From Naegleria gruberi (Eukaryota): DNA of 64,000 bases. The stretch lies in NCBI GenBank assembly GCA_000004985.1, contig GG738858.1; one strand, given 5' to 3'. The translations under genes were made by a program, and so were the position numbers. Below the pieces are notes generated by a model. That model did not search any database, had not been told where the DNA came from, and saw only the letters and a program-made list of their open reading frames with translations. Shown piece by piece: positions 3,485 through 31,900 of the stretch (position 1 is its first letter; the number at the start of each line of letters is the position of its first letter).

Positions 3485-5069
3485 ATGGACAAATTGCATA
3501 TAAATTATTACCCAACCACTACTGACTTGTTACTCACAAACAGTTCATCCACAAATAGCAACACCACATCAACAACAACACTACCTTCTCCCTTCACTAC
3601 ATACAGTATTATTACCATTGCTTTAACTTCACCATATGCTTTGATTTTTATTGGGTTATTCATATTCACACTCATTAGTTTCATTCTCCAACGAAATCAA
3701 TTGAAGAGAAATCAAGTAATTTTATTTGTGTTACTCTTAACATTGGAAGTAATTTGTGTTATTTCGAATTTGACAAGAGCAACATCAGAGTTGAGTTTAC
3801 TTGCTGGTCGAGATGCACAAGGGAAAATTAATAATGGATATTATGGTGTGAAAGCTGTTGATAGATTTTTAGTTTCAGTCTTGATTTTTATTCAGATTTT
3901 AATACTTGCCTTTATTTGTTATGTATTGTAAGTATACTAAATTTGTATAGGTTTACAACAATTGAATTATAGTATGGCCACAACAAGACAAATTGGCTAT
4001 GTTACCACTAAGAGTTATAATATTTCAAAGATTGTATTGGTATCACTTGTTGTCATTATTGGTATAATCTTAACTTTGAATAATGTGGCCATTCTGACCT
4101 ATCATGGATTGATGGCAAGTTCAGATATCTTGGCTCAGAATGGAGCTGAATATAATTTCACAGTTTCAATCTTTATTGCTCCATGTGTCATCTTTTTCTT
4201 TGCATGTGTTGCAATTTCCATCTTTCTCAATGTAAGTTTTCCTTCCTTTAACAATTGACTAAAATTGATCAATCATCTCTGTACAGATTTATGGATATAA
4301 ATTATATGCCTCATTGAAAAAGAGTCAACAAGCATTGAAAGAAGCATTCAAGCAACAAAATGCTCTTGTTAAAGAGTCTCAAAGTGAGGCACCTTCAATG
4401 GTAGAATCTTCATCCAGCATTTCTATTGGACCTCGATTGACTCTTGAAGACAGCAGTATGGATTCATCACCTCTTCCACAAATTCCAACCATTCAGAATC
4501 CAACACTCTTAGAACTTGAAAAGGCAATGTCACCTTCAAATTCATGTGAAAGTTTATCCAATTCGAGAGAACCACTCAATAGTCCAGAATCTGTTCCTAC
4601 TCTATGTGTTTCTCCTGACTCTTCAACTCCTCTTCCAATTGTAAAAGCTAGCTCACCAACAAGTCCAAAAACAACAAGATATTCCTCAAGAACCATCCAA
4701 GAGCCACCATCTGAAACCAGTAGCCACAATACAAGTTCCAAACGTAGAAAGAATTACACAACCTTCACAAAAGAACAGCAACAAGCCTATCAAGTTAAAA
4801 AGAGAGCTCTCCAAAAAGCACTTTTATTACAATTTGGTCTATCTGCTTCTCTATTTGTAGAGTCAATTGGTGTGTTATTCATTTCAATTGCAGTTGCTTG
4901 GAATTATTCAGTTATCATTTTCTTTAATCTTTTCAATATTGGTATTATTTGTTTCATTTCATTACTTTTAGCAATTTATCATCCACTGAGACAAGTTCAA
5001 CAATTATTTAGAATGCCAAGTGACAAACAAATTGAACTTAAAACTTCTGCTCCTAGTAAAAATGTTTAA
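3485..5069 (+). CDS. Seven-transmembrane receptor-like protein (GPCR-like) with large Ser/Pro-rich third intracellular loop; 3 exons
   Basis: Exon model 3485..3927, 3973..4231, 4287..5069, about 495 aa. Intron 1 is GTAAGT...TATAG (3928..3972, phase 2) and intron 2 is GTAAGT...TACAG (4232..4286, phase 0); both restore a continuous frame. Five hydrophobic helices lie in exons 1-2, then about 170 aa of S/P/T-rich low-complexity loop, then two more helices (LFVESIGVLFISIAVAW, IGIICFISLLLAIY). No specific GPCR family assigned. Confidence 0.55.
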
Positions 5070-5094
5070 ATGTTATTTTATTAATAATTTGTTT

Positions 5095-5328
5095 TTAATA
5101 TTCGTTTTTTGGGTTTTGTATTGTCCAATTGTTGATAATACCAAATGTGCCAGATGAATTCCTCTTGAATAGAGTCAACACACCAATCATAGCAAGAGTT
5201 TGTTCTCCCTTATAGAAAGTATAATAATACAACTTGTTTTGGATTGATAAGGCTGAAATGAAGTTATCATTGGTCCAACAATTGTAGTGCAATACTATCG
5301 TTGCACTGGCACATATTTCCTTCTCCAT
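5095..5328 (-). CDS. Small hypothetical protein (77 aa from first ATG)
   Basis: The ORF-track start is a TTG. The first ATG gives MEKEICASATIVLHYNCWTNDNF...NPKNEY. Codon usage is not AT-biased like the surrounding intergenic DNA. No homology recognised. Confidence 0.2.
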   Translation of the reverse strand: MEKEICASATIVLHYNCWTNDNFISALSIQNKLYYYTFYKGEQTLAMIGVLTLFKRNSSGTFGIINNWTIQNPKNEY

Positions 5329-5712
5329 CCCTGACAATGACTTTCTATCCACAAGTTTTTGAGCCAAATCGTTTTTGCAGCAAAGTTTGAAAAGAATTTT
5401 CTCACAGTGGAAAAATTGTAAAAATTGTCACATCGTGGAGTTTGTGTTAATAATTCACGAATGTACATTTAAGGTACCTCTCTGTTTCTTGGATCAGTTA
5501 GCCTTTCCAATAAATTCCAGAAAATGGATTGGCATTTTTCATATTCATCGTCATGTGTTTGCATTTGTTTTAATAGAAAGATTAATTGTTGTTGAGCCTT
5601 AGTAAATTTTCTCGTTAGAATGAGATTTTTGTGGATTTAAAGTGCAGTTTATTCAAATAAATCAATTCAAGAAATTTACTCAGAAATATTATGGTTTGTG
5701 CTGCTCAATTCA

Positions 5713-6732
5713 TCACATGATGGAACACTTTTTCCTATCATCTTGTTTTCCATTTTCGTAAACTAAAATATCGGTAATATCTTTTTGATAATAATTAATG
5801 CAAATTTTTAAAAATTCTTCAATTCCATTTCCCAATTCATTTATATTTTTAATAATAATTAAATTTTTTCTATTTTTTAATAATTCAACAAGTTGTTTTC
5901 CCAATTGTAATTTTTCATTTTCATATATGGAATCAATAATTACCAAACATGGAAATAAAATTGAATATTTAACTTTATCAATCATTTCCATAATTTCTTG
6001 TAACATTTCAAATTCTCGATTTAAATTTATAATAATTCCATGAAATCTTTCTAATAATTGTAATTTATGTGAATATTCAAATGATTGTGAAATTTCTGTT
6101 ATTAATAAATTATTAATTATTTTAATTTGTTCATTATTTGATTTGTTTGGTAATTTAATTAATTTGGCTGTTTCACATTTATCCAATAAAGAAATTTTAT
6201 CAAATTCATCAAAATCAAATCCAAATTGTTGATTCAAATATAAGTTTCTCCTTCCAAACGAATTACAAATTCCAATTTCAAATATTTTATCTAATCTATT
6301 TAATGTATTTAATTTAAATTCATTTAATTCAATTAAATTTTTATTATTAAAATATTTAGATAATAAAATAATTAAATTTTTATATTTAAAATAATTATTA
6401 TTAATACTAGTATTATTATTAATAGTATTTGTAATAAAATGTTCAATTCCCACCAATTTATATCTTTTTAATAAAATTACTTTCCAATAACTTTGGAATA
6501 AATTTCTAATTAAAATAATATTATCATTCAATTGTTGATATTTCCTACGTTTTGTATTATTATCATTATTAACATTAAATAATTTATAATAAATCCATTC
6601 TAAATTATTAATACATGATACAGATGATGATGAATATTCCATGATCGGATGAAAATCATCAATTAAAATAAAATTTAATATTTGAATGTGAAGTTCGAGT
6701 GGTAAATTTCTTATCAAATTATTTTCATTCAT
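5713..6732 (-). CDS. Hypothetical protein with N-terminal F-box-like motif
   Basis: 339-aa ORF, very AT-rich and Asn-rich. The N-terminus LPLELHIQILNFILIDDF resembles the F-box consensus (LP.E.L..IL..L). Rest is low complexity. Confidence 0.5.
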   Translation of the reverse strand: MNENNLIRNLPLELHIQILNFILIDDFHPIMEYSSSSVSCINNLEWIYYKLFNVNNDNNTKRRKYQQLNDNIILIRNLFQSYWKVILLKRYKLVGIEHFITNTINNNTSINNNYFKYKNLIILLSKYFNNKNLIELNEFKLNTLNRLDKIFEIGICNSFGRRNLYLNQQFGFDFDEFDKISLLDKCETAKLIKLPNKSNNEQIKIINNLLITEISQSFEYSHKLQLLERFHGIIINLNREFEMLQEIMEMIDKVKYSILFPCLVIIDSIYENEKLQLGKQLVELLKNRKNLIIIKNINELGNGIEEFLKICINYYQKDITDILVYENGKQDDRKKCSIM

Positions 6733-6851
6733 TTTTTTAAAAAATCAAATACATGAAGTGACTCTAAATATTGAGTAATTATAAATAATTTTTCTTAAAT
6801 TGTAAATTGGATAAATCCATCACTATTTTTTAAATATTAATGAATAAAAAT

Positions 6852-7984
6852 TTATTCATCTTGTTCTTCTGGAATGTTGAATAGAGCATTGTGATAAACA
6901 TTTTGTACATCATCGTGATCATTCAATTTTTCAATAAGATTTTGAATACTTTCAGCAACTTCTGGATCAGTAATTTCAATAAATGAAGTTGGAACTTGAC
7001 CAATTTCACATGTAATATTTTGAATGGTAATATTCATACCCTTTTCAATATTTGTCTTTTCAGTGTCGAGTAGAGATTTTAAATTATGAACAGATTCAGG
7101 TGAACAAAAGAGAGAACATTCTAAAAATTCCTTTTCCATATCATTTTGAGTTGGTTCAATTTTTAAATCTTCAACACCATCCATATCTGATACTTTTTCA
7201 AATAAATTATCATAAATAATATCCATCTTTGAATGAGACATTGGAATTGTAAAGTTAACAACTCCTTTCTTTTCAAAACACCATTGAACTGATGTACCTA
7301 ATTGACCTTTGTGTAATGAAAAAAGTGTTCTTACTTGTTGAGCTGTTCTATTCTTATTTTCTGTTAATGAATCAACAAGAACTGCAACACCACCTGCTCC
7401 ATATCCTTCATAACCAATATATTCCATATTAGCATCCTTTTCATTTAAACCTGATTTAATAGCACCATCAACAATATGTTTTGGAACATTGTTCTTTCTA
7501 GCCTTTTCAAGACATAAACGTAATCTTAAATTATCAGATCCTGCTCCTCCAAGTTGAACACATGTTTTAATTTCACGTGAAAGTTTTGTATAAATTTTCA
7601 TCTTTTGAACATCTGTAATTGCTTTTTGATGTTTAATCTATATAATTATCAACATCATTTCCAAATATTGTTTCAATTTTAATAGGAATTTTAATTGTTG
7701 TGCAATAATCATAATCATAATAAAATTCACAAGATAGGTAAATCACAAATATCCAAATATTATTATTCATATCATCACAAATAAATTCCGATATATTTTC
7801 CTTTAATAAACAATATAATAATTCATCATACCTTTGACCACTTGTTGTGTCCAGCATAATTGACACTCAAGTAATTTGAGAAATTTCTAACAGCAGGTCC
7901 ATTCAAAAAACTTGTACTGCTGCTGCTATTCGCTATAAATTTATATCTGAATGCCGATAACAAGGCTGATGATGATTTGAACAT
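6852..7984 (-). CDS. YebC/PmpR-family protein (TACO1-like, probably mitochondrial); 2 exons
   Basis: Exon 2 (6852..7637) carries the family core: IKHQKAITDVQKMKIYTKLSREIKTCVQLGGAGSDNLRLRLCLEKARKNNVPKHIVDGAIK. Exon 1 (7832..7984, found by hand on the minus strand) encodes MFKSSSALLSAFRYKFIANSSSSTSFLNGPAVRNFSNYLSVNYAGHNKWSK, a presequence-like leader plus the GH(N/S)KW(S/A) family N-terminal signature. Intron 7638..7831 is GTATGA...TATAG, phase 0. AAAAAATG start context. Confidence 0.7.
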
Positions 7985-8747
7985 TTTTTAAAAAAAACAA
8001 AAATTTAAAAAAATTAATTGTTAAATCAAATTATCTTGAGAGCCTTTGCGTGACAACTATCCATTAAAATAGCCTCTTCAGATGTTGTATATCAATTTGA
8101 AAATTTAATTAATAATTATTAATAATCATAGTATGGTCTATTTGTAAAAATATGAGTGAAAGATAAGGAACGGATGAAAATGAGAAAATAGGAAATAAAT
8201 ACGAAAGAAGGATGAATGTTTGATTCCTATTGAATATGATAATTTCTTTACAATTATTTACAATTAATTCTCTTTTACTGTAGCTTAACTAATATGATTC
8301 TACATTCGAAAATAGAAGTATGTACGAATTCCTTTACTGTCACAATGAAAAGACAACATTAATCTTCATCCATGAAATATTAAAATTTTCCTATTGACAA
8401 CAAATATTTGAAAGATCATAAACAATATTTGAGATTGCAAATATTGATTCAATAGTATTCAGCTTCTCTTTAACTTTACAAAAATCGGAGCAAAAAAATT
8501 CTCAATTAAAATTTCCTCTCACACTTTTTCAAAGCCTCAAACATTTAAGATCCGAATGGATATCGCTGCTCCTTTCTGTTACCTTTGTTCGGACATGACG
8601 ATGGGCAACTGCCCAACAACTTCATTTACAGCCGTCAAAAAGCTCAAATATTCAACGAACACTTTGGCGCCAAAAAGATTCCAGCTGGAAAGTAGGGAAT
8701 CGTTGAAGGCTTTTGTTGAAATTTCGCACACAAAAAAAAAACGCAGA

Positions 8748-13351: not shown

Positions 13352-15433
13352 TTATTGACTACCAGTCTTGGCAAAATCATTAAAACCACCCAATAAAGAA
13401 TCAGGAATAAATTCATAAGTTGAAATCTTTTCAGCCATTTCAATTAAATCAAAAGCAATATCTTGTGTAATGACACTATCTTTTTGATAATTTTGATGAT
13501 TTCTAATAAATTGTCTAATAAAAGCAGCATTAGTTTGTAATTTACCACTTGCTCTCAAACTAACTAAATTTAAATATCTTTCCAATTTAATTCTATCATT
13601 AACTTCAACATGCATTTGATCAAGATATTTTCTAACAAGAGGAATTAATCCAATAAATTTCTTATCTTGTTCTTGAACACCATTCATAATTTCATTAATT
13701 GTTAATTCCTTTGTACATTTAGAAAAAGTTTCAGATGAAATTTTAGAATTCAAATCAGAATCTAAACAAGTTCTAAATGAAAACTTTTGATTCAATACAG
13801 CATCTCTTAAATGTGCCTTTTTCATATTTTCATCAACTTGTGAAAGTGGCATTAACATGTTCAATTTGAATGATAAAATAGCACGTGTTAATAAAACAAT
13901 AAAAACTGTAAATGCAGCATTTTCAAAATCAGTTAATTGAACTTCCATAACTCTAAATTCAACTCTCCATCCAATTGATGAATTTGGACCTGGAGGTGGT
14001 TTAAATCTAACAGTTTGCCAATTGGTTGATTGTAAATTTTCAAAATGAACAGATTCATTTTCATCATCAACTTGTTTACAATCAGTAAATATAACAAGTG
14101 GATCACGTATAAAGTAATGTGCAATATGTCTTGATAATTGTTCATCAATATTATTTTCACGTAAAGTATTATATGATTGTTCATCAATTTCAATTTCCAA
14201 ATCACTAAATTGTTTTGCTTGTTCATTTTCACCAATATATAAACTAATTGAATCATATCTACTTTTAGAAATTGTATTATTTTCTTCATCTCTTCTATCA
14301 TCAACACTTGCACTAACAATATTCCATCGTACATCTGTATCTGCTAATAATCCACGTGCCATTGGTGTTGCTGCTGTGAGTGCTAACATTATTGGACATA
14401 AAACTGCCATTTGATCATATAAATTACGTGCTTCATGAATATCACGTGCTAATAATGTACTTTGCATACAACAACATCCCATTCCAAATGCCATTGCATC
14501 CATATGAATAAAATGTTCAAAATCTGTTATCAATCTTTGTGCATATGAAGATGAAAGTACTTGTTCCTTCTTTTGTTGAATAATTTCATCAATATTTGGA
14601 TATAAATTTGTTAGAGTTGATGAACTAGTTGTTGAAGAAGATGTAATATTATCCAAATGATGAACTTGTTTACCAATATTAACATTAGTATTTTCATCAA
14701 TATATAATGGTACTAGAATGTTAACATTTTTACCTCTTCTCAATCTGATATTTCTAGTTAGAGTACCAAATCTTGGATGTTCATTTGTAATAATATCTGG
14801 AATGTATGGTGATCTTGCAATTGGTCCATTAAAAGTTAACATTTCATTACTTTCATCATCACTTAATGGTAAAATATCACCAATCTTATTAAATTGACTC
14901 TTATTAATATCACTATTCAATACTTTACTTGTTGCACCTAATAATGGAAATAAAGACATTGTAATAACAGAATTTGTAACATTTGGTGATTTGAATTGTT
15001 GTAAAATCTTTGGAACAATTGATTGTGCAATCATTCTTCTTTTTTGCATTGATTCTTCACATTTCAAATAACAAGAAATACATCCTTCATATGGAAAGAA
15101 AGGTGTACCTTCTAACATAAATCTACCATATTCTGGTTTCCAACTTGCTAATGGTGCTTGTGTTATCAATTTTGAATTAAAATCTTCTTCTTCTTTCATT
15201 AAAACATCTAATACTTGTTTAGCATGTAATGATAAATAAACTTGACGTGATTCGGAATCTTTTTCTAACAATAAATATTCAATTTCATCTCCCCATTTCA
15301 ATTCTTTATCAGTTCTATCTTTTACCTTGTTATAAATTATTATAAATTGTTTAATACCATGTTCTTTTACATAGTCAATTAATGAAAGTGCATCAGTCCA
15401 CTTGAGTGGTGTACCTGCTTTTAATAATCCCAT
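13352..15433 (-). CDS. GCLC: Glutamate-cysteine ligase catalytic subunit (gamma-glutamylcysteine synthetase)
   Basis: Intronless 693-aa ORF collinear with metazoan GCLC: MGLLKAGTPLKW, KWGDEIEY, HPRFGTLTRNIR, HMDAMAFGMGCCCMQ, DVRWNIVSASVDDR, HFENLQSTNWQTVRFKPPP, IGWRVEFRVMEVQLTDFENAAF, KDSVIT. Confidence 0.9.
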   Translation of the reverse strand: MGLLKAGTPLKWTDALSLIDYVKEHGIKQFIIIYNKVKDRTDKELKWGDEIEYLLLEKDSESRQVYLSLHAKQVLDVLMKEEEDFNSKLITQAPLASWKPEYGRFMLEGTPFFPYEGCISCYLKCEESMQKRRMIAQSIVPKILQQFKSPNVTNSVITMSLFPLLGATSKVLNSDINKSQFNKIGDILPLSDDESNEMLTFNGPIARSPYIPDIITNEHPRFGTLTRNIRLRRGKNVNILVPLYIDENTNVNIGKQVHHLDNITSSSTTSSSTLTNLYPNIDEIIQQKKEQVLSSSYAQRLITDFEHFIHMDAMAFGMGCCCMQSTLLARDIHEARNLYDQMAVLCPIMLALTAATPMARGLLADTDVRWNIVSASVDDRRDEENNTISKSRYDSISLYIGENEQAKQFSDLEIEIDEQSYNTLRENNIDEQLSRHIAHYFIRDPLVIFTDCKQVDDENESVHFENLQSTNWQTVRFKPPPGPNSSIGWRVEFRVMEVQLTDFENAAFTVFIVLLTRAILSFKLNMLMPLSQVDENMKKAHLRDAVLNQKFSFRTCLDSDLNSKISSETFSKCTKELTINEIMNGVQEQDKKFIGLIPLVRKYLDQMHVEVNDRIKLERYLNLVSLRASGKLQTNAAFIRQFIRNHQNYQKDSVITQDIAFDLIEMAEKISTYEFIPDSLLGGFNDFAKTGSQ

Positions 15434-15677: not shown

Positions 15678-15691
15678 AGCCTTGGAGACGG
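15678..15691 (+). repeat. Left terminal inverted repeat candidate (GCCTTGGAGACGG)
   Basis: Pairs with 20104-20121 in inverted orientation, 11/12 core identity. Confidence 0.4.
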
Positions 15692-15860
15692 CTATTATGG
15701 TTAATTGTGGATTATTATCGCAAAATTCTGGCAAAAAATATTTTTTTTTAATTACGGATTTGAATTATGGAAGTATTACATTAGGTATTATGACGTGAAG
15801 AATTTTAATAAAATTATGTGAATTATTACAAATAAAAATTACAGTTTTTATTAGATTATT
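15690..15860 (+). repeat. Left subterminal motif array: at least 6 copies of (A)ATTA(T/C)G(G/A) in about 170 bp
   Basis: ctATTATGGtt, aATTACGGat, aATTATGGaag, tATTATGAcgtg, aATTATGTg, aATTATTAcaa. Denser than expected, and mirrored by a similar array at the other element end. Confidence 0.45.
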
Positions 15861-15909
15861 TATTATTGTTTTATTTTGAAATTAATTAACTGAAAATTAT
15901 TGCCAGTAT

Positions 15910-18564
15910 TTATTGGTAATAATTCATACAGAATGAAAATTGATTGAGAGCAATAAGACCTGGAAATCTGATTACACTGCACACGCTATTAATCTTTGAA
16001 AGAGGAATTACTGAAGTGGCAACTGAGTGAATGAATAGTTTGTACATTAATGATACATAACACAACTCTCCAAGCGTAAAAATTTCATCACAACAAACAA
16101 CATTATCCCCTAATTGAGATATCTTCCCAATAAATCTATCGAATTGAATATACATTCCAACCTTAAGTGATGATTTTCTAGCAACATCAAGTGTTTTACC
16201 AACTAATCGTCTTGTAAATGGATAATCTGCAAATAATGTATTCATTCCAACTTCATGTTGCAACCCTCTAACTTCAAGTAATTTGTTATTACTTCTATCA
16301 TTAAATTGTTTGAATTCAGAATGTTTCAATTCAAAAATCAACGCCCAAAACCATGTAACATCCCCAAAAAGTACACAATCTTCAAAAATGTGCGTTGCCC
16401 AATGATAATTCGGAAATTGGCAATTATCTTTGCCAAAACAATATGTAAAAATGGATTGAAATTTTGTAAATACTTTTTCACAATACACAATATCATCATG
16501 AGTATAATTCCCCCTTAATAACCTTATAAAATATTGTAAGTGAAGAATCCATCCTTGATAGAGTAATCCTTTTTTAGAAGAATCTATTTTCAACTTTTGA
16601 TTATTATTGTAAATTAATTCACAAATAATAGGAGCACTCATAATAATAAAATCTAACATTGAAATACCTGAAAGAGTGTCAATATCCATTCTTAATTCAA
16701 GCTTTTTTCCATTTGGAAGAGTATACTTTGTTGATATTTCAATTAAATCATCCATAGCAGTCGCATATTCTAATGCTTGTACAAGTAATTTGAGATGTTT
16801 TCGAAATAATCCTTGAATTTCTAAATGAAAGAAATCAACTACAGATCTACGATACGGATCTATCATTATTTGAGTAACAAATCTTGATTTGATGAATGTT
16901 TTGACAATTAATTGATTCATCAATTGTTTTCTTTTGTTTGTTGACATTTGCTTACTTTTGAATCTCTCCTCTTCCCAAGTTTGTTCTTTTACACCTTTCC
17001 TTGCAATTCTATTTTGTTTAGAATCTGCAATTTTAGGTAATTCTGATAATTTCTCAACAATATCTTTCATTTCTGAATGTTCTCTCCTTTTAAATGTGTG
17101 TACACATGTTGGATTAAACGCGGATGCACCCATTAAATCTGTTGGTGTTTTGTCAAGGTTGTCTGACGCATCTAAACATCTGGAACATTCATTTTTCATA
17201 AGTGCTAAACATTTCAATCTTTCAGGTGTATCTAATAAAAATCCCATACAGCAAATGAATAGCTTAATATCTTCTCCTGTAGTTGGATGTTTCACTGTAA
17301 TGATTTTACCATCATGATTTTCAAAATCTTGAATAATTGAATCAGTCATTTTCCAAAATCCTTCATTACTCCATGAAAAACCGTTTACACGAATTGCGCT
17401 TAAACTTGACATGAAATCTGAATCAAAATTGTAACTTGTGAAATAGGAGGCGCATGTTGACTTGGTTTTTGTTCTGAATTTAGCAAAATCATCAAAATAT
17501 TCTAAAACTAGAAATGGAAATGCATCTTCAGGGCATTTAGCAAGGTATTCACCAAATATTTTTGAAAAGTAAGGTTGATTTTCTTTCTTTTGTATATTCT
17601 TTTTTTCAAAATATTCTTTTCGTGTTAAGCACATGTGTTTTGTGATTGCTTGATCTTTCAACAACAATTTCAAATTATTCTCAAATGAAATTGCTGCAAA
17701 TCCATCCTCTTGTTTGTATTCAAAATTGATCATTGCTTTTTTCCTTTCGAGTAATGTATCGTAACAAGGAATTTCGTTAAAAGTTGATTCAGGGACCATG
17801 TATTTGAACATATCTCTAAGGAAATCGTACCCACTTTTACACAATTTGAAATGATTAACCAAAATATAACAGTATATTTCTTCTTTTGATTGAAATACAC
17901 CCTTTCCATTCACATCTTTTAAAATTTCACACCCCAAATCATATGGTAGCTCTTTAAAAACAAAATTTCCAATTTTTTCACATTTTACATCCGATTCTTT
18001 GTGAAATATTTCTGAAACTGGAAAATAAAGAGTGTCAATTATTGAAAAGGGAGTTTCAATTGTATTAGCAAATCCGAAAATACTACCTTCAGCTAAAACT
18101 TGTTGTGAGTGAATTCCGTTTTGTTTTAGCTTCTTCTGTTGCGATTCGTATTCAGTCAGCTTTGGTAATCTACTGTCTTTAGATTTTAGCAAATGTGTAC
18201 AATGTGAATTAATAATGTGAGTGTAACAATTTTCACTGTTCATGATAAAATTACAACAATTAAATCTTGATACAGTATCTATCTTTGCAAGAGAACAATT
18301 TCCCTTAGAACATCTATTAAGATGCTTTTTTAATAAATCTCCCTTTGTAAATGTTTGACAACAAAAAGGACAGACCCAGCGTTTTGTTTGACAATCACGA
18401 CATGAAGAACATAAACTTAAATCAAATGAAGATTTTGCACATTCATACACATAGTACTCTTCCTCTTTTTGACATTTATCGCATTTTGTTGCTTTTGTGA
18501 GAAAATCAAGGGATACATTGTTACCAGGTTTTTGTGTAATCATTTTTTTAGCATTGTAAACCAT
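15910..18564 (-). CDS. TNP2/En-Spm-like (Transposase_21, KDZ-superfamily) transposase with N-terminal Cys-rich (CxC-type) zinc-binding region
   Basis: Long intronless ORF: 895 aa from the ORF-track TTG, 883 aa from the first in-frame ATG at 18564 (an in-frame TGA lies upstream). N-terminus has 17 Cys in 100 aa (CDKCQK..C..CSSCRDC..WVCPFCCQ..C..C). Central region PFLVLEYFDDFAKFRTKTKSTCASYFTSYNFD matches the TNP2 core LGL.TDGFNPF....S.YS.WP..LT.YNLP. GEDIKLFICCMGFLLDTPERLKCLALMKNECSRC matches the following conserved block ending C..C. C-terminal HWATHIFEDCVLFGDVTWFWALIFELKHSEFKQFNDRSNNKL resembles the DUF4218-like tail (H....D..LFG.V...W.F.FER....K....R..NK). No poly-N/Q tracts, unlike host genes. 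Confidence 0.6.
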   Translation of the reverse strand: MVYNAKKMITQKPGNNVSLDFLTKATKCDKCQKEEEYYVYECAKSSFDLSLCSSCRDCQTKRWVCPFCCQTFTKGDLLKKHLNRCSKGNCSLAKIDTVSRFNCCNFIMNSENCYTHIINSHCTHLLKSKDSRLPKLTEYESQQKKLKQNGIHSQQVLAEGSIFGFANTIETPFSIIDTLYFPVSEIFHKESDVKCEKIGNFVFKELPYDLGCEILKDVNGKGVFQSKEEIYCYILVNHFKLCKSGYDFLRDMFKYMVPESTFNEIPCYDTLLERKKAMINFEYKQEDGFAAISFENNLKLLLKDQAITKHMCLTRKEYFEKKNIQKKENQPYFSKIFGEYLAKCPEDAFPFLVLEYFDDFAKFRTKTKSTCASYFTSYNFDSDFMSSLSAIRVNGFSWSNEGFWKMTDSIIQDFENHDGKIITVKHPTTGEDIKLFICCMGFLLDTPERLKCLALMKNECSRCLDASDNLDKTPTDLMGASAFNPTCVHTFKRREHSEMKDIVEKLSELPKIADSKQNRIARKGVKEQTWEEERFKSKQMSTNKRKQLMNQLIVKTFIKSRFVTQIMIDPYRRSVVDFFHLEIQGLFRKHLKLLVQALEYATAMDDLIEISTKYTLPNGKKLELRMDIDTLSGISMLDFIIMSAPIICELIYNNNQKLKIDSSKKGLLYQGWILHLQYFIRLLRGNYTHDDIVYCEKVFTKFQSIFTYCFGKDNCQFPNYHWATHIFEDCVLFGDVTWFWALIFELKHSEFKQFNDRSNNKLLEVRGLQHEVGMNTLFADYPFTRRLVGKTLDVARKSSLKVGMYIQFDRFIGKISQLGDNVVCCDEIFTLGELCYVSLMYKLFIHSVATSVIPLSKINSVCSVIRFPGLIALNQFSFCMNYYQ

Positions 18565-18674
18565 ATGAAATTCTACCAAATAGTGGTTATTTTTCAATGT
18601 ATTCCACCAAACACAAAATCATTACGTAATAATTTCGTATTGTAAATTATTAAAAAAAAACCATCCAAAACATA

Positions 18675-19379
18675 ATGTTAAGTACAACAACATCTATTAC
18701 AAATTCCACCGTAACACCTCCCAAAAAACGAAAAAAAGAGGTGGAGAAAAGAAAAACGACAAAGACACACCACCAAAAACTGTCTTATTGTACAAGTCTT
18801 GTTCCTGACAACTTTGTCACCTTGTTGAAACCTTTGCAAGATAGATACTTGGAAATTATTAATGAAACCAACGTTAGCTATTATTCCTTGGTAAGTAATT
18901 AATTGATTTTGTTACAATTTCCAAAGAAACTAAGAGCAGACTCTGACATAGAAATACAACAAGTAGCTGCAACATCATTGGTGGCAGTAACAAATTTTTT
19001 TGCTAACAATGCACAAATTCAAAGTTTAAAAAATAATTGTGAAAAAGATGAAAAACAATTTAATTTAATCGTAAGTTAGATTATAATAGCTAATAGTTTG
19101 TTTAATTTTACTGTTCAGATTGATGAAATAGTGTTGAACTGTTGCCGAGCTTATAAGAGCAACAAGAAGAAGAATTTGAAACGAAAGCAAGTAGAAAAAA
19201 CACGTGATTCTGGTAAGAAATTTGCAGTAGAAGATGAGGCAATAATTTATGAACAAGATGATCAATATAAAGCTTATAGAGATAAATTATCCGAACCAAC
19301 TAAAAACAAAAAAACTAAAATTGATAGTTCTATGGCTGTAGATATGGTTTGTTATCAACTTTTAATTCAAATATTCCAA

Positions 19380-19410
<31 letters not shown>

Positions 19411-19415
19411 TCTAA
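18675..19415 (+). CDS. Element-internal ORF2: small basic nuclear protein; 3 exons
   Basis: Exons 18675..18890, 18927..19070, 19119..19415, about 218 aa. Both introns begin GTAAGT and end ...CAAAG / ...TTCAG, and both restore frame. N-terminus is T/S-rich followed by PPKKRKKEVEKRKTTK (classic basic NLS), with a second K-rich block (KSNKKKNLKRKQVEK). C-terminus ends in a poly-Tyr run encoded by (ATT)9 read in the TAT frame, so the last exon boundary is uncertain. Transcribed divergently from the transposase from a 110-bp shared region. Confidence 0.4.
19381..19407 (+). repeat. (ATT)9 microsatellite
   Basis: Perfect 27-nt trinucleotide repeat at the 3' end of ORF2. Confidence 0.9.
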
Positions 19416-19974
19416 TTTCCGAATTTAATTAATTTCCAAATTTAATTCCACAATCACGTAAGTTACACTGAAGTTTTCAATTTTTCAATAATTCAATAAT
19501 TCAATATTGAATATTAATTTCCTTAGTTAATTGGTCAACTAATTCTGTTGCCTTTGGAGTCACTTCACAGTCAATTCACTCAATTCCAACACATAACTCT
19601 TTCATCTTCATGTTCATCTGTTGCAACAACAGAAACTACAGTCATTTCCCTTTGTACAGTTCCCATTGTTTCAATATTTGTTAGTTTCTGTGTAATTTGC
19701 TTTACTGTAAATAATCAAATAAATCAAATTCAATTAAAATTAAATATATTTCATAATTTTACAAAATAATTAGGTCAAAAATCTATCGTAAATTCTGTAA
19801 TAATTATTCCAATATATTTACATAATTATTCCATATTAAATTCATAATGTTAATACAATTATTACGTAATTTAATTAATAATTACCTCGTAATAATATCC
19901 GTAATAAATCCAATATTTTTGCCTGGAAATGACAAATCCGGTTGTGAATTGCTGTATAATTATATGATAATTCC

Positions 19975-20100
19975 GAAGAGATTATGATGTGATTGTGTAT
20001 TTTTTTTGGTTTTTATTACGGGAAAATTACGTCAAAATTATGGTGTATTCTGGTTTGATTATGAGCAAATTATGTTAAAATTAAATTAATGATTATGGCA
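19975..20100 (+). repeat. Right subterminal motif array: at least 7 copies of (A)ATTA(T/C)G(G/A) in about 125 bp
   Basis: gATTATGAtgtg, tATTACGGg, aATTACGTc, aATTATGGtg, gATTATGAgc, aATTATGTt, gATTATGGc. Same orientation as the left array. Module-level similarity to the left array, for example T-run followed by ATTACGG, and ATTCTGG. Confidence 0.45.
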
Positions 20101-20103
20101 AAA

Positions 20104-20121
20104 CCGTCTCCTAGGAGGCAT
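20104..20121 (-). repeat. Right terminal inverted repeat candidate (revcomp GCCTCCTAGGAGACGG)
   Basis: Inverted copy of the 15678-15691 motif with a 3-nt insertion (CCT). Confidence 0.4.
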
Positions 20122-20164: not shown

Positions 20165-20188
20165 TTAAGTGAGTGCGTACTCACTTAA
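20165..20188. repeat. Perfect hairpin / palindrome TTAAGTGAGT-gcgt-ACTCACTTAA
   Basis: 10-bp inverted repeat with 4-nt spacer, 44 bp outside the right TIR candidate and about 470 bp upstream of the NAA15 start. Relatively GC-rich for this intergenic region. Confidence 0.6.
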
Positions 20189-20658: not shown

Positions 20659-23600
20659 ATGACCAAGAAGCGTGGTGCCACTTCATCATCAACAACTTCA
20701 GCAGCAGCAACAAGTCAACAATCTGCTACCAACAAGTCTGCTACAGCAACAACAACAACTCAAACATTACCTTCTAAATATGAAGCACTATTCCGTAATC
20801 TTATTAAATTTTATGAAGAAAAACAATATCAAACAGCCTTGTCCTATGCTGATAATATTTTGAGAGATTATCCACAACATGGTGATACAATGGCTATGAA
20901 GGCTTTATTAACAAGATATCTTAAAGAACAAGAAATTAACAAGCGTGTTGAATTTAATACTAATTTTTATTATAATAAGAATTCTACTACAAATTCTAGT
21001 AGTACTACTTCTAACGGTACTAGTAATAGTAATAATAGTATTGGTGATGAATTAATGTTATATGACAAGACATATAAAAAAGATGCTTATAATATGGTTA
21101 AAAAGGCTTTGGAATATGTTAATAACAAGTCATTTATTTGTTGGCATGTTTATGGATTAATGTATAAGGAAGATTTTAAAATTTCTCAAGCAATTACTTG
21201 TTTCCAAAATTCATTAAAATTTAATCCAACTAATGAAATTCAAGCTTGGCGTGAATTGAGTAATGTTCAAATTCATTCAAGAGATTATAAAGGAGCGATT
21301 GAAAGTAGAAGAAAGTTAATTGAATTAAAACCAGGTATTGGTGCATTTTGGTTAGGTTATGCTGTTGCTCAACATTTAAGTGGAAATTTAACAGGCGCTA
21401 TTCAAACTATTGATAAATACATGACAGCACTTTTTGAACAAAGTAATAAGGATAGTAAGAATTACAAATTTGAAAAATCAGAATTATTACTTTATTTAGC
21501 ACAAATGATGTATGAAAATGGTCAATATAAGGAATGTGCTGATTCTTTATTAGCTAATACTAAATTTTTAGCTGATGAACTTTCAACTTTGGAATTACTT
21601 GCTGATTGTTATATTAAATTAAATCAATTAGATCATGCTAAAAAGATTGCTTTACAATTAATTAAGAAGAATTCAGAAGATTATTCTTATTATGGTAAAT
21701 ATCAATTAGCTTGTGGATTTAATACAAGTGAAAATAGATTCCTCCTCGATGATTCTAAATCTAATAATAATCAACAAGAAGAAGTTGCATTGAAATTATT
21801 TGAAATGTATACAACAAGTGAAGATTTGAAGGAATTTAGAGAAAAATCACCAGTTCTTAAAATGATTATTCTTTCTCTCTGTCCACCATATAACAATTCA
21901 AATGATGAAAGATTTAAAAAGGAATTGAATTCATTTGTTGAACCATATTTTACCAAGACTATTCCATCACTTTTTAAAACTTTGAAATCAATTTATCAAA
22001 AACAAACTTGTAAAATTGCACTCATTGAACAAGCCATGTTAGAAAGAATGAATCAAGAAGAATCCAATACTACTTCTAATACTTCTAATACTTCTACTAC
22101 TACTACTAACAAAGATCCAACCATTTTACTTTGGATTTATGTTTATTTATCACAACATTATGATGCCATTCATCAATATGATAAGGCTCTTGAATATGTT
22201 AATAGAGCTATTGAACATACTCCAACTCTTATTGAATTGTACATGCTCAAGGCTAAATTTTACAAACATTTATTTAATACTGAACAAGCTGCTTTATGTA
22301 TGGAACAAGCACGTTTAATGGATTTATCTGATCGTTATTTAAATACTAAAGCAACCAAATATTGGACAAGACATGATGAAATTGTTAAGGCTGATGAAAT
22401 GATTGGTATCTTTGCTAAACATCCAAAAGATCCTGCAACAAAGAAGGAAGAAGAAGCAAAAGAAAAGGAAAAGGCCAAACAACAACAAGAACAACCTCAA
22501 CAAACTCAACAAACTCAAACATCATCTTCATCACAACAAGATCTTGAAAAGAAGGAAGAAGAAGAAAAGGATTCTAATTTAATTCCAATTGAAGATGGTG
22601 CTATTTATCATCGTAATAATGTTCATGATATGCAATGTTTATGGTTTGAAAATGAATGTGGTGATGCTCATTATAGAAAGGGAGAATTATCAATGGCTGT
22701 TCGTAGATATTATTATACAGTTCAACATTTTATGGAAATGTATGAAGATCAATTTGATTTCCATACTTATTCAATTAGAAAGATGACACTTAGATCATAT
22801 ATTGAAATGATGAAATATTATGACAAGTTATATTCACAATATTTCTATTTCCATTCAGTTTGTGGATTATTGAATGTTTATTTATTATTATTAAAACAAA
22901 AAGAAGAAAAGGAAGGAATTACATTTGATTCACCAACTGAATATGGTAATTTTAAGAATGATTACATTTCAAATTTCCAAAATATTGATTTGAGAAAAGA
23001 TGAAGATTTGAATGGATTATATCTTTCTTCTAAAATTAATTTATTTGATGAATGTACTAAATATTTGAAACAATTAGAAGAATATCATTCAAATGAAATT
23101 ATTACACATATTTATGGTGTAACTATTTATTTAAAGAGTAGAAAATATTTACTTGCTAGTAAAGCATTAAAAAAAGCATTGGAATTATCACCATCTGATT
23201 ATAGAGCTCATTTATTGAAATTCCAATATTTAAAAACTATTAATTCTATTGATCAAGCTGATTCACTCTATAAATTATTACAAATGGATTATCAAAAAAT
23301 TACTTTAGGTAAATCATTAAATGATTTAAATGAAGAATGGAAAAATCAATTTATTACCAATAATAATAATAATAATAATAATGGAGGTGATATTCTCAAT
23401 GTATTATCCTATTTATCTGTTAAACATTTAATTAATGATAACAATAATAACAATAATACTGATAATAATGATAATGAATTATTAACAAGTATTGTTGAAA
23501 AATCATCATTACGTTCATGTTATATTGCTCATGCCATGTTAACAAAGAAGAGAATTACAAATAGACCATACAAGAAGGAACAAGATTACAAGATTAATAC

Positions 23601-23688
23601 TCATTTAGATTTTACAATTCAAAATCAAGATTTAATTGTTAATCAATTAGTTCAAAAGATTGAATCTGTTTTTAATATTAAATTGTAA
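20659..23688 (+). CDS. NAA15: N-alpha-acetyltransferase 15 (NatA auxiliary subunit, TPR protein)
   Basis: Intronless 1009-aa ORF collinear with NAA15/Nat1: YEALFRNLIKFYEEKQYQ, GDTMAMKAL, ICWHVYGLMYK, WRELSNVQIHSRDY, AFWLGYAVAQHL, PTILLWIYVYLSQHYD, PTLIELYMLKAKFYKH, LSDRYLNTKATKYW, MQCLWFENECGDAHYRKGE, QFDFHTYSIRKMTLRSYIEMMK. Extra S/T/N-rich and K/E-rich low-complexity insertions. AAAAAAATG start. Confidence 0.9.
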   Translation: MTKKRGATSSSTTSAAATSQQSATNKSATATTTTQTLPSKYEALFRNLIKFYEEKQYQTALSYADNILRDYPQHGDTMAMKALLTRYLKEQEINKRVEFNTNFYYNKNSTTNSSSTTSNGTSNSNNSIGDELMLYDKTYKKDAYNMVKKALEYVNNKSFICWHVYGLMYKEDFKISQAITCFQNSLKFNPTNEIQAWRELSNVQIHSRDYKGAIESRRKLIELKPGIGAFWLGYAVAQHLSGNLTGAIQTIDKYMTALFEQSNKDSKNYKFEKSELLLYLAQMMYENGQYKECADSLLANTKFLADELSTLELLADCYIKLNQLDHAKKIALQLIKKNSEDYSYYGKYQLACGFNTSENRFLLDDSKSNNNQQEEVALKLFEMYTTSEDLKEFREKSPVLKMIILSLCPPYNNSNDERFKKELNSFVEPYFTKTIPSLFKTLKSIYQKQTCKIALIEQAMLERMNQEESNTTSNTSNTSTTTTNKDPTILLWIYVYLSQHYDAIHQYDKALEYVNRAIEHTPTLIELYMLKAKFYKHLFNTEQAALCMEQARLMDLSDRYLNTKATKYWTRHDEIVKADEMIGIFAKHPKDPATKKEEEAKEKEKAKQQQEQPQQTQQTQTSSSSQQDLEKKEEEEKDSNLIPIEDGAIYHRNNVHDMQCLWFENECGDAHYRKGELSMAVRRYYYTVQHFMEMYEDQFDFHTYSIRKMTLRSYIEMMKYYDKLYSQYFYFHSVCGLLNVYLLLLKQKEEKEGITFDSPTEYGNFKNDYISNFQNIDLRKDEDLNGLYLSSKINLFDECTKYLKQLEEYHSNEIITHIYGVTIYLKSRKYLLASKALKKALELSPSDYRAHLLKFQYLKTINSIDQADSLYKLLQMDYQKITLGKSLNDLNEEWKNQFITNNNNNNNNGGDILNVLSYLSVKHLINDNNNNNNTDNNDNELLTSIVEKSSLRSCYIAHAMLTKKRITNRPYKKEQDYKINTHLDFTIQNQDLIVNQLVQKIESVFNIKL

Positions 23689-27838: not shown

Positions 27839-27888
27839 NNNNNNNNNNNNNNNNNNNNNNNNNNNNNNNNNNNNNNNNNNNNNNNNNN
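27839..27888. other. Assembly gap (50 N)
   Basis: Run of N. Confidence 1.
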
Positions 27889-28919: not shown

Positions 28920-31900
28920 NNNNNNNNNNNNNNNNNNNNNNNNNNNNNNNNNNNNNNNNNNNNNNNNNNNNNNNNNNNNNNNNNNNNNNNNNNNNNNNNN
29001 NNNNNNNNNNNNNNNNNNNNNNNNNNNNNNNNNNNNNNNNNNNNNNNNNNNNNNNNNNNNNNNNNNNNNNNNNNNNNNNNNNNNNNNNNNNNNNNNNNNN
29101 NNNNNNNNNNNNNNNNNNNNNNNNNNNNNNNNNNNNNNNNNNNNNNNNNNNNNNNNNNNNNNNNNNNNNNNNNNNNNNNNNNNNNNNNNNNNNNNNNNNN
29201 NNNNNNNNNNNNNNNNNNNNNNNNNNNNNNNNNNNNNNNNNNNNNNNNNNNNNNNNNNNNNNNNNNNNNNNNNNNNNNNNNNNNNNNNNNNNNNNNNNNN
29301 NNNNNNNNNNNNNNNNNNNNNNNNNNNNNNNNNNNNNNNNNNNNNNNNNNNNNNNNNNNNNNNNNNNNNNNNNNNNNNNNNNNNNNNNNNNNNNNNNNNN
29401 NNNNNNNNNNNNNNNNNNNNNNNNNNNNNNNNNNNNNNNNNNNNNNNNNNNNNNNNNNNNNNNNNNNNNNNNNNNNNNNNNNNNNNNNNNNNNNNNNNNN
29501 NNNNNNNNNNNNNNNNNNNNNNNNNNNNNNNNNNNNNNNNNNNNNNNNNNNNNNNNNNNNNNNNNNNNNNNNNNNNNNNNNNNNNNNNNNNNNNNNNNNN
29601 NNNNNNNNNNNNNNNNNNNNNNNNNNNNNNNNNNNNNNNNNNNNNNNNNNNNNNNNNNNNNNNNNNNNNNNNNNNNNNNNNNNNNNNNNNNNNNNNNNNN
29701 NNNNNNNNNNNNNNNNNNNNNNNNNNNNNNNNNNNNNNNNNNNNNNNNNNNNNNNNNNNNNNNNNNNNNNNNNNNNNNNNNNNNNNNNNNNNNNNNNNNN
29801 NNNNNNNNNNNNNNNNNNNNNNNNNNNNNNNNNNNNNNNNNNNNNNNNNNNNNNNNNNNNNNNNNNNNNNNNNNNNNNNNNNNNNNNNNNNNNNNNNNNN
29901 NNNNNNNNNNNNNNNNNNNNNNNNNNNNNNNNNNNNNNNNNNNNNNNNNNNNNNNNNNNNNNNNNNNNNNNNNNNNNNNNNNNNNNNNNNNNNNNNNNNN
30001 NNNNNNNNNNNNNNNNNNNNNNNNNNNNNNNNNNNNNNNNNNNNNNNNNNNNNNNNNNNNNNNNNNNNNNNNNNNNNNNNNNNNNNNNNNNNNNNNNNNN
30101 NNNNNNNNNNNNNNNNNNNNNNNNNNNNNNNNNNNNNNNNNNNNNNNNNNNNNNNNNNNNNNNNNNNNNNNNNNNNNNNNNNNNNNNNNNNNNNNNNNNN
30201 NNNNNNNNNNNNNNNNNNNNNNNNNNNNNNNNNNNNNNNNNNNNNNNNNNNNNNNNNNNNNNNNNNNNNNNNNNNNNNNNNNNNNNNNNNNNNNNNNNNN
30301 NNNNNNNNNNNNNNNNNNNNNNNNNNNNNNNNNNNNNNNNNNNNNNNNNNNNNNNNNNNNNNNNNNNNNNNNNNNNNNNNNNNNNNNNNNNNNNNNNNNN
30401 NNNNNNNNNNNNNNNNNNNNNNNNNNNNNNNNNNNNNNNNNNNNNNNNNNNNNNNNNNNNNNNNNNNNNNNNNNNNNNNNNNNNNNNNNNNNNNNNNNNN
30501 NNNNNNNNNNNNNNNNNNNNNNNNNNNNNNNNNNNNNNNNNNNNNNNNNNNNNNNNNNNNNNNNNNNNNNNNNNNNNNNNNNNNNNNNNNNNNNNNNNNN
30601 NNNNNNNNNNNNNNNNNNNNNNNNNNNNNNNNNNNNNNNNNNNNNNNNNNNNNNNNNNNNNNNNNNNNNNNNNNNNNNNNNNNNNNNNNNNNNNNNNNNN
30701 NNNNNNNNNNNNNNNNNNNNNNNNNNNNNNNNNNNNNNNNNNNNNNNNNNNNNNNNNNNNNNNNNNNNNNNNNNNNNNNNNNNNNNNNNNNNNNNNNNNN
30801 NNNNNNNNNNNNNNNNNNNNNNNNNNNNNNNNNNNNNNNNNNNNNNNNNNNNNNNNNNNNNNNNNNNNNNNNNNNNNNNNNNNNNNNNNNNNNNNNNNNN
30901 NNNNNNNNNNNNNNNNNNNNNNNNNNNNNNNNNNNNNNNNNNNNNNNNNNNNNNNNNNNNNNNNNNNNNNNNNNNNNNNNNNNNNNNNNNNNNNNNNNNN
31001 NNNNNNNNNNNNNNNNNNNNNNNNNNNNNNNNNNNNNNNNNNNNNNNNNNNNNNNNNNNNNNNNNNNNNNNNNNNNNNNNNNNNNNNNNNNNNNNNNNNN
31101 NNNNNNNNNNNNNNNNNNNNNNNNNNNNNNNNNNNNNNNNNNNNNNNNNNNNNNNNNNNNNNNNNNNNNNNNNNNNNNNNNNNNNNNNNNNNNNNNNNNN
31201 NNNNNNNNNNNNNNNNNNNNNNNNNNNNNNNNNNNNNNNNNNNNNNNNNNNNNNNNNNNNNNNNNNNNNNNNNNNNNNNNNNNNNNNNNNNNNNNNNNNN
31301 NNNNNNNNNNNNNNNNNNNNNNNNNNNNNNNNNNNNNNNNNNNNNNNNNNNNNNNNNNNNNNNNNNNNNNNNNNNNNNNNNNNNNNNNNNNNNNNNNNNN
31401 NNNNNNNNNNNNNNNNNNNNNNNNNNNNNNNNNNNNNNNNNNNNNNNNNNNNNNNNNNNNNNNNNNNNNNNNNNNNNNNNNNNNNNNNNNNNNNNNNNNN
31501 NNNNNNNNNNNNNNNNNNNNNNNNNNNNNNNNNNNNNNNNNNNNNNNNNNNNNNNNNNNNNNNNNNNNNNNNNNNNNNNNNNNNNNNNNNNNNNNNNNNN
31601 NNNNNNNNNNNNNNNNNNNNNNNNNNNNNNNNNNNNNNNNNNNNNNNNNNNNNNNNNNNNNNNNNNNNNNNNNNNNNNNNNNNNNNNNNNNNNNNNNNNN
31701 NNNNNNNNNNNNNNNNNNNNNNNNNNNNNNNNNNNNNNNNNNNNNNNNNNNNNNNNNNNNNNNNNNNNNNNNNNNNNNNNNNNNNNNNNNNNNNNNNNNN
31801 NNNNNNNNNNNNNNNNNNNNNNNNNNNNNNNNNNNNNNNNNNNNNNNNNNNNNNNNNNNNNNNNNNNNNNNNNNNNNNNNNNNNNNNNNNNNNNNNNNNN

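Follow-up and report, generated by a model that had tools for sequence, protein, structure and literature searches.

The divergently transcribed genes GCLC and NAA15 of Naegleria gruberi (assembly GCA_000004985.1, contig GG738858.1) are held apart by about 4.4 kb of DNA, which raises the question of what this segment represents. The window analysed, i.e., the whole stretch of 64,000 nucleotides, consists of real letters at positions 1–28919 (with a 50-N gap at 27839–27888) and of N at positions 28920–64000. As N makes up over half of the window, window-wide background rates were taken on about 28.9 kb and not on 64 kb. The initial annotation of the window had proposed an autonomous DNA transposon of the TNP2/KDZ class. 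An autonomous-looking DNA transposon is indeed present, with terminal repeats and subterminal arrays, in a short bidirectional intergenic region; its class and host had to be revised. The 4,436-bp segment at positions 15680–20115 is a DNA transposon with an inverted 12-mer at both ends. Judged from the sequence evidence, it is very probably an intact two-gene cut-and-paste transposon, probably still active, lodged in the GCLC–NAA15 bidirectional promoter region of about 0.8 kb. The element would belong to a family distributed in Naegleria and uncultured microeukaryotes, whose nearest curated relative is the Plavaka lineage of the CMCT group (CACTA/EnSpm, Mirage, Chapaev and Transib).

The ends of the element are sharply defined. 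The left terminal inverted repeat, CCTTGGAGACGG (15680–15691, plus strand), lies near the 3′ end of the transposase gene, and the right one, CCTAGGAGACGG (20104–20115, read on the minus strand), lies at the end carrying the accessory gene. Both were located by 12-mer matching and are identical in inverted orientation at 11 of 12 positions, as the initial annotation had noticed. The 12-mer has two matches in the whole window against 0.02 expected, and two or more matches occurred in none of 100 shuffles. A wide occurrence of the 12-mer in unrelated promoters, which would have spoken against its being a transposon end, is not seen in the window, where it has no matches besides the two ends. The ends of the element read CCTTGGAG and CCTAGGAG, and direct reading of the flanks adds a feature missing from the earlier description, a 2-bp target-site duplication (AG at 15678–15679, repeated as the identical dinucleotide after the right end at 20116–20117). 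No further copies or fragments of the 4,436-bp element were found elsewhere in the window.

Motif arrays reported at both ends are real and consist of the hexamer ATTAYG and its complement CRTAAT. The left subterminal array (15692–15900) contains five copies, all in plus orientation, and the right one (19741–20103) contains 14 copies, mostly in minus orientation in the inner block and in plus orientation in the outer block. The motif density amounts to 22.6 per kb in 15680–15900 (n = 5) and 37.3 per kb in 19741–20115 (n = 14) versus 1.49 per kb in the rest of the real sequence, so that the end arrays reach 15–25 times the background. The 300-bp bins richest in ATTAYG across the window are all located inside the element ends, with 19741–20103 as the densest region. 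The arrays are presumed to be transposase-binding sites.

The mobility of the family is shown by the relatives of the element, namely by the copies of a sister element in N. lovaniensis and their duplications. Six contigs of this species code for P0081, a homolog 38% identical to the window transposase, and the species thus carries at least six copies of the sister element. All six loci (L001–L006, positions 4328–8718 in each) share a common block of 4,391 bp with 99.7–99.95% identity; there is no similarity outside this block, and the neighbouring genes are all different. The blocks start with CCTAGGAGCAGA, end with TCTGCTCCTAGG and feature perfect 12-bp repeats flanked by the dinucleotide duplications AT, AA, TT, TT, AA and TT. 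The window element and the N. lovaniensis element are alike in CCTWGGAG ends, size class (4,436 and 4,391 bp) and the 2-bp length of the duplication. The N. lovaniensis transposase is annotated as a “hypothetical protein”, with a 742-aa model that does not include the zinc-finger N-terminus of the window protein.

Three more diverged loci have comparable ends. Locus L010, with a transposase 27% identical to that of the window, has the ends CCTAGGAAGGTCAAAA and CCTAGGAAAGTCAAAA and the flanks TA/AT; locus L011 (19% identity) has the ends CTTAGCAGATA and the flanks TT/TT; and locus L012 (18% identity) has ends beginning with CTTATGAGGATG and CTTTGGAGGATG and the flanks AA/AA. The terminal motif CYTWGGAG is common to the window element, the N. 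lovaniensis element and these three loci. Altogether, a CYTWGGAG-like terminus is found at 10 of 10 loci, and a 2-bp duplication at nine of 10 (the window and eight of the nine related elements).

Near-identical copies also seem to exist in N. gruberi itself. The 90% identity cluster of the window protein includes four annotated N. gruberi proteins: P0216 (877 aa, on the same 782-kb scaffold as GCLC), P0001 (629 aa, 100% identical, on a 138-kb scaffold), P0217 (320 aa with one substitution, on a 309-kb scaffold) and P0215 (111 aa, under two accessions on two contigs, the 309-kb scaffold and another one). These annotated proteins, 99.7–100% identical and placed on different scaffolds, indicate at least three to four near-identical copies. 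N. gruberi also contains at least two further lineages of the transposase, 27–30% identical, represented by P0004/P0079 (NAEGRDRAFT_65790, 51042) and P0008/P0087 (NAEGRDRAFT_64044, 76420), with several annotated members in each. N. fowleri has apparently kept only a 186-aa fragment (P0082).

The transposase gene is the intronless 2.7-kb open reading frame (ORF) recognised in the initial annotation. The uninterrupted frame extends over 15910–18597 on the minus strand and encodes 895 aa from a TTG codon; the gene, taken from the ATG at 18564 (15910–18564), encodes 884 aa instead of the 883 aa reported before. The ORF is 100% identical to NAEGRDRAFT_65505/75925, an annotated protein of N. gruberi. 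An exhaustive phmmer search of the window protein against 1.84 billion representatives yielded 75 relatives, including a full-length relative of 865 aa that is 36% identical to the window ORF and collinear with it. This closest full-length relative originates from an unassigned metagenome contig. The named sources of relatives are N. gruberi, N. lovaniensis and N. fowleri only, the others being metagenome and read-archive contigs. A word-indexed protein search returned the self-match only, both with the single protein and with a 17-sequence profile. Metagenome contigs searched for related loci with the alignment and with the closest relative, P0002/P0077, gave none, and no relatives of the transposase were found in viral contigs.

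An alignment of 17 transposase sequences with identity down to 17% (alignment A2) revealed a set of invariant residues: D358, D445, C460, C463, H580, G585, N719, H721, H725, G734, W740, E745 and H748. The motifs follow the order D, D...CxxC, H..H...GP...W...E.KH, and the PN.H...H......G.....W...FE.KH motif, equivalent to the DUF4218 region, is present. The protein can be divided into N-terminal C2H2 zinc fingers (residues ~28–125), a linker modelled with low confidence (residues 124–216), a putative RAG1-like DDE core (D358, D445, E745; C460-x2-C463; H721-x3-H725) and a C-terminal beta-rich domain (residues ~805–874). The initial annotation had read the Cys-rich N-terminus as a CxC-type domain. 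In a comparison of the family profile with the PDB, the N-terminal region matched CTCF (E 9e-9), and Pfam zf-C2H2 matches were also obtained; the sequence thus identifies the Cys-rich N-terminus as a pair of C2H2 zinc fingers. The best 60 of 144 PDB matches were all zinc-finger or RING proteins matched via the N-terminal region, with neither RAG1 nor Transib nor any other transposase core among them.

The catalytic part of the protein was compared at the level of the predicted fold. The AlphaFold2 model built with a 78-sequence alignment has a mean pLDDT of 83.4 and a pTM of 0.75, with most of residues 220–884 above 90; a model from the single sequence reached a pLDDT of 34 and was of no use. 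Foldseek gave 33 matches at E ≤ 1e-3, each of them to RAG1 or HzTransib (Helicoverpa Transib). RAG1 is the top match (E 5.5e-12), and RAG1 structures align over about 650 columns with a TM score to the target of 0.52–0.66. In the model, D358 is located on a strand, D445 just after a strand and E745 on a helix, a placement as expected of an RNase-H-fold DDE centre. The predicted catalytic core thus has the RAG1/Transib-type fold.

Profile searches pointed to Plavaka as the nearest curated family. The window transposase alone matches no Pfam model at E ≤ 1, Transposase_21 and DUF4218 included. The Plavaka model (PF18759) was matched above its gathering cut-off of 26.3 bits by the majority family consensus (32.5 bits) and by the relative P0022 (40.1 bits), and P0022 matches the window protein with an E-value of 7e-14. 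A C(2)C plus H(3–4)H arrangement located after the second D and before the E is a signature of EnSpm, Mirage, Chapaev, Transib, Plavaka and RAG1 (Kojima 2025, PMC12730594). The catalytic and zinc residues of this CMCT pattern are present and invariant in alignment A2, and the 2-bp duplications at the window and at eight of the nine related elements fall within the 2–5 bp of the CMCT group. On these sequence features, the element is placed in the CMCT group, provisionally as Plavaka-like. The wording “Plavaka-like” was preferred to Plavaka because Plavaka is the nearest curated family, yet the termini differ and the model match is partial.

A second, accessory gene is predicted upstream of the transposase gene and divergent from it (18675–19415, plus strand). 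The inferred model consists of three exons (18675–18890, 18927–19070 and 19119–19415) separated by two short GTAAGT...AG introns that preserve the frame. The predicted protein of 218 aa is basic and carries an N-terminal KKRKK motif; no Pfam family was matched by it. A small gene occupies the equivalent divergent position in the N. lovaniensis element, and the two accessory proteins align (BLASTP E 5e-6). By tblastn, the N. lovaniensis protein matches the corresponding ORF of L010 (E 7e-8, 41% over 54 residues). The common block of the accessory proteins is a basic-rich stretch followed by F..[ED][ND][DE]..[IVM]Y[DE]..[SD][ED].YK.Y. As far as the sequences go, the accessory gene is conserved in both position and sequence across three lineages. 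On the contigs of P0002, L011 and L012, small minus-strand ORFs of a similar kind are located ahead of the transposase gene. The 3′ end of the accessory gene is uncertain, because the tail of the ORF (YYYYYYYYY) is encoded by a (TAT)n microsatellite at 19378–19407. The GTAAGT at 19458 together with a 73-aa ORF at 19548–19769 could be an extra exon.

The element is flanked by two genes supported by Pfam matches, GCS/GCLC on the minus strand (13352–15433; Pfam GCS, E 7.6e-157) and the NatA auxiliary subunit gene NAA15 on the plus strand (20659–23688; Pfam NatA_aux_su, E 4.7e-101). The divergent pair would be 789 bp apart after removal of the element, in agreement with the estimate of less than 0.8 kb made at the outset. 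GCLC of the window and the transposase ORF are each 100% identical to their N. gruberi counterparts, which places the window in Heterolobosea and not in the dictyostelids or other Amoebozoa to which it had been ascribed. Since the host is N. gruberi, the comparison with dictyostelid transposon families made in that connection is irrelevant.

An empty orthologous site was found on contig L009. This contig encodes GCLC at 78% identity and NAA15 at 61% identity along its entire length; the two genes retain the divergent order and lie 393 bp apart with no element between them, and the contig has no transposase homolog. The intergenic DNA of L009 is alignable with the reconstructed empty site of the window at the coding ends only; it is too diverged, and the empty-site junction is therefore not placed at the nucleotide level. 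The region 1914–7812 of L009 (ENA ERZ27315067) preserves the window's gene order of NAA15, GCLC and Elf1, with a GC-content of 40% versus about 27%, and the probable source of the contig is a Naegleria-like heterolobosean that has not been sequenced. N. fowleri is uninformative on the empty site, since PRK and not NAA15 lies upstream of its GCLC.

Two other features of the window were noted. A perfect hairpin-type palindrome, TTAAGTGAGT-GCGT-ACTCACTTAA (10-bp arms, 4-nt centre), is situated at 20165–20188 in the intergenic DNA on the NAA15 side, 50 bp beyond the element's right end, and may serve the host genes as a promoter element or a site of factor binding. Two tRNA genes, tRNA-Gln(TTG) and tRNA-Arg(TCT), are located close together on the minus strand at 2126–2198 and 2564–2637.

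Concerning the class of the element, the alternative is the one proposed by the initial annotation, i.e., a canonical En/Spm TNP2 element (Transposase_21 plus DUF4218) or a KDZ (Kyakuja-Dileera-Zisupton) element with a CxC N-terminus. The order of the transposase motifs is En/Spm-like, Plavaka is placed inside EnSpm/CACTA by some authors, and three distant relatives (P0024, P0054 and P0015) give weak matches to DUF4218 (PF13960) of 20.0, 17.3 and 15.7 bits (E 6.4e-4, 4.6e-3 and 0.014, respectively). All three, however, remain below the gathering score of 27, and DUF4218 was matched neither by the window protein (E ≤ 1) nor by the family consensus (E ≤ 10). The profile check suggested at the outset likewise returned nothing for the other models: Transposase_21 (PF02992) had no match in the window protein at E ≤ 1, in 36 relatives at E ≤ 0.01 or in the family consensus at E ≤ 10, and the KDZ and CxC models had none in these three sets at the same thresholds. 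A lack of TNP2/KDZ profile matches had been named in the initial annotation as speaking against its proposal. En/Spm elements have CACTA...TAGTG termini and a 3-bp target-site duplication, both of which are missing here. A canonical TNP2/CACTA element is ruled against by these ends, by the length of the duplication and by the lack of a Transposase_21 match. KDZ elements generate duplications of 7–8 bp (Kojima 2025, PMC12730594), and the 2-bp duplication, the C2H2 nature of the N-terminus and the lack of KDZ or CxC domains contradict KDZ membership. Narrow TNP2 or KDZ membership is thus quite unlikely, and what survives of the original class assignment is a broad CACTA/EnSpm relationship, seen in the DDE triad, the C(2)C, H(3)H and W..FE.KH motifs and the Plavaka threshold passed by the consensus and P0022.

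The remaining alternatives concern the history of the locus. One of them, that the ORF has been domesticated as a host gene derived from a transposase or is an immobile fossil, with the inverted 12-mer being a relic or a coincidence, is highly improbable. The intactness of the ORF and its annotation as an ordinary predicted protein would suit such a gene, which would be expected as a single copy, syntenic across species and devoid of conserved ends; the initial annotation, too, had considered what a single-copy segment with no empty site in related genomes would mean. Instead, the ends are 11/12 identical and surrounded by an intact 2-bp duplication, the subterminal arrays are kept at both ends, at least three further annotated proteins with 100% or nearly 100% identity are encoded on other scaffolds, the orthologous site is empty in the organism represented by L009, and the N. 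lovaniensis sister family comprises six nearly identical copies. Horizontal transfer to N. gruberi in recent times from an unrelated donor, also suggested at the outset, is very unlikely. Such an arrival would be in line with the near-identical copies, with the unassigned origin of the closest full-length relative (36%) and with the GC-content at third codon positions (GC3), which is 0.214 in the transposase ORF versus 0.102 in GCLC and 0.141 in NAA15. The distinct coding style noticed in the initial annotation is real insofar as GC3 exceeds that of the two flanking genes and the ORF is free of homopolymer runs of four or more; on the other hand, the GC3 value is within the range of the other ORFs of the window (0.06–0.27). 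The highest value in the window, 0.274, belongs to the plus-strand ORF 901–2082, and the raised GC3 is therefore a weak signal that is not specific to the element. Also at variance with a recent arrival, the accessory gene has short GTAAGT introns of the Naegleria style, viral contigs yielded no relative, and diverged lineages (27–38% identical) occur in N. gruberi (NAEGRDRAFT_65790, 51042, 76420), N. lovaniensis and N. fowleri, the last of which has a fragment. The presence of several diverged lineages points to a long residence of the family in the genus.

A number of observations weigh against the interpretation of the segment as an active Plavaka-like CMCT transposon. The Plavaka match covers only profile positions ~183–321 of 325, i.e., the last ~140 positions, and the link to Plavaka is transitive, via the consensus and P0022, because the window protein itself matches no Pfam model. 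CMCT lineages, Mirage included, have 5′-CA..TG-3′ termini in most cases (Kojima 2025, PMC12730594), and the CCTWGG termini are unlike them, since the ends of the family begin with CC or CT and finish with GG or AG. The termini also differ from those described for Plavaka, which combine a 2–3 bp duplication with TGT..ACA (Plavaka A) or CATCA..TGATG (Plavaka B) ends. The flanks of L010 (TA/AT) do not form a clean duplication. Some of the N. gruberi copies, known from annotated proteins alone, could possibly be alternative haplotype scaffolds. Finally, the AlphaFold prediction may be biased towards RAG1, which was part of its training set.

The comparison with known systems shows a mixture of shared and distinct traits. 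Plavaka (PF18759; Iyer et al. 2014; Kojima 2025, PMC12730594) is the only curated model reached by the Naegleria family. Plavaka A resembles the window element in the short 2-bp duplication, and Plavaka elements often have several genes, including accessory ones. Besides the lack of a model match for the window protein alone, the partial profile coverage and the CCTWGGAG termini in place of TGT..ACA or CATCA..TGATG, the differences include the nature of the accessory gene, which encodes a small basic protein and not a TET/JBP dioxygenase or PAG1-3, and the host, a heterolobosean and not a fungus or alga. With En/Spm (TNP2/TnpD plus TnpA), the window element shares the two-gene content, the short terminal repeats with subterminal motif arrays, catalytic and zinc motifs that follow each other in the same order, and a W..E..K block resembling DUF4218. 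It differs from En/Spm in having no Transposase_21 match and no above-threshold DUF4218, in its 2-bp duplication and CCTWGG ends (3 bp and CACTA in En/Spm), and in its divergent genes, whereas the En/Spm genes are spliced from one transcript. Mirage belongs to the same broad group (CMC) and also has a 2-bp target-site duplication, while the CA..TG ends reported for most CMCT lineages are missing in the window element.

To judge from spacing, the likeness to RAG1 may extend to individual residues. In mouse RAG1, C727 and C730 follow D708, and H937 and H942 complete the zinc site, H942 being followed by E962. The C460/C463 pair after the second D parallels C727/C730, and the spacing of 20 residues between H725 and E745 parallels that of H942 and E962. 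Nevertheless, the identity is only 8–14% (8–10% with Transib, 11–14% with RAG1 and RAG1-like proteins), the duplication is 2 bp and not 5 bp, and the ends are not similar to the heptamer (CACAGTG). In addition, the window element has no RAG2-like partner, unlike the RAG1/RAG1-like (ProtoRAG) systems, and its N-terminal domain is made of C2H2 fingers, not a nonamer-binding domain.

A cut-and-paste mechanism can be proposed for the element from these features. The 884-aa transposase would recognise the element ends, most likely through its N-terminal C2H2 fingers, which would contact the ATTAYG arrays, the CCTWGGAG termini or both; the accessory protein, together with the fingers or in their place, may also bind these sites. 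The presumed RNase-H-fold DDE centre (D358, D445 and E745) would then cut at the CCTWGG ends and join them to the target DNA. The zinc site formed by C460/C463 and H721/H725 probably buttresses this centre, as in RAG1 and Transib, to judge from motif conservation and the predicted fold. The AG duplication observed at the flanks points to a strand transfer staggered by 2 bp, which would produce such a duplication. By analogy with RAG1 and Transib, a hairpin may form on the flanking DNA during cleavage. The small basic protein would act as a conserved accessory factor, and could, speculatively and by analogy, be an end-binding or regulatory partner similar to TnpA of En/Spm.

The finding is a well-delimited new element of an already known kind, not a new kind of element. 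CACTA-related elements and Plavaka have been described before in fungi, in red and green algae and in other protists, and other N. gruberi transposons are already in Repbase and Dfam. Because CACTA-related elements are widespread in eukaryotes, current understanding is not overturned. No description of this transposase family in Naegleria was found in the literature searched, with Repbase and Dfam lying outside the comparison. The host and class of the element are now corrected (Naegleria and not Dictyostelium, Plavaka-like and not TNP2/KDZ), and the exact ends, duplication length and gene content are given for a family whose proteins bear only the label “predicted protein” in three Naegleria genomes. 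Genetic tools are scarce for N. gruberi, a free-living model relative of the pathogen N. fowleri, and an intact, apparently recently active cut-and-paste element with defined ends of 12 bp is a candidate vehicle for delivering transgenes or for mutagenesis by insertion.

With this family, the range of transposases known to have a RAG1/Transib fold reaches Discoba as well. Together with their relatives from uncultured organisms, the Naegleria elements might even constitute a distinct unnamed CMCT lineage, characterised by termini of the CYTWGGAG type, duplications of 2 bp, a pair of C2H2 fingers at the N-terminus and a conserved small accessory gene, with a core structurally nearer to RAG1 and RAG1-like proteins than that of the solved Transib is; we regard this attribution as tentative and somewhat doubtful. 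If it is true, the lineage would be a deep outgroup useful for reconstructing the origin of the RAG1-type recombinase core.

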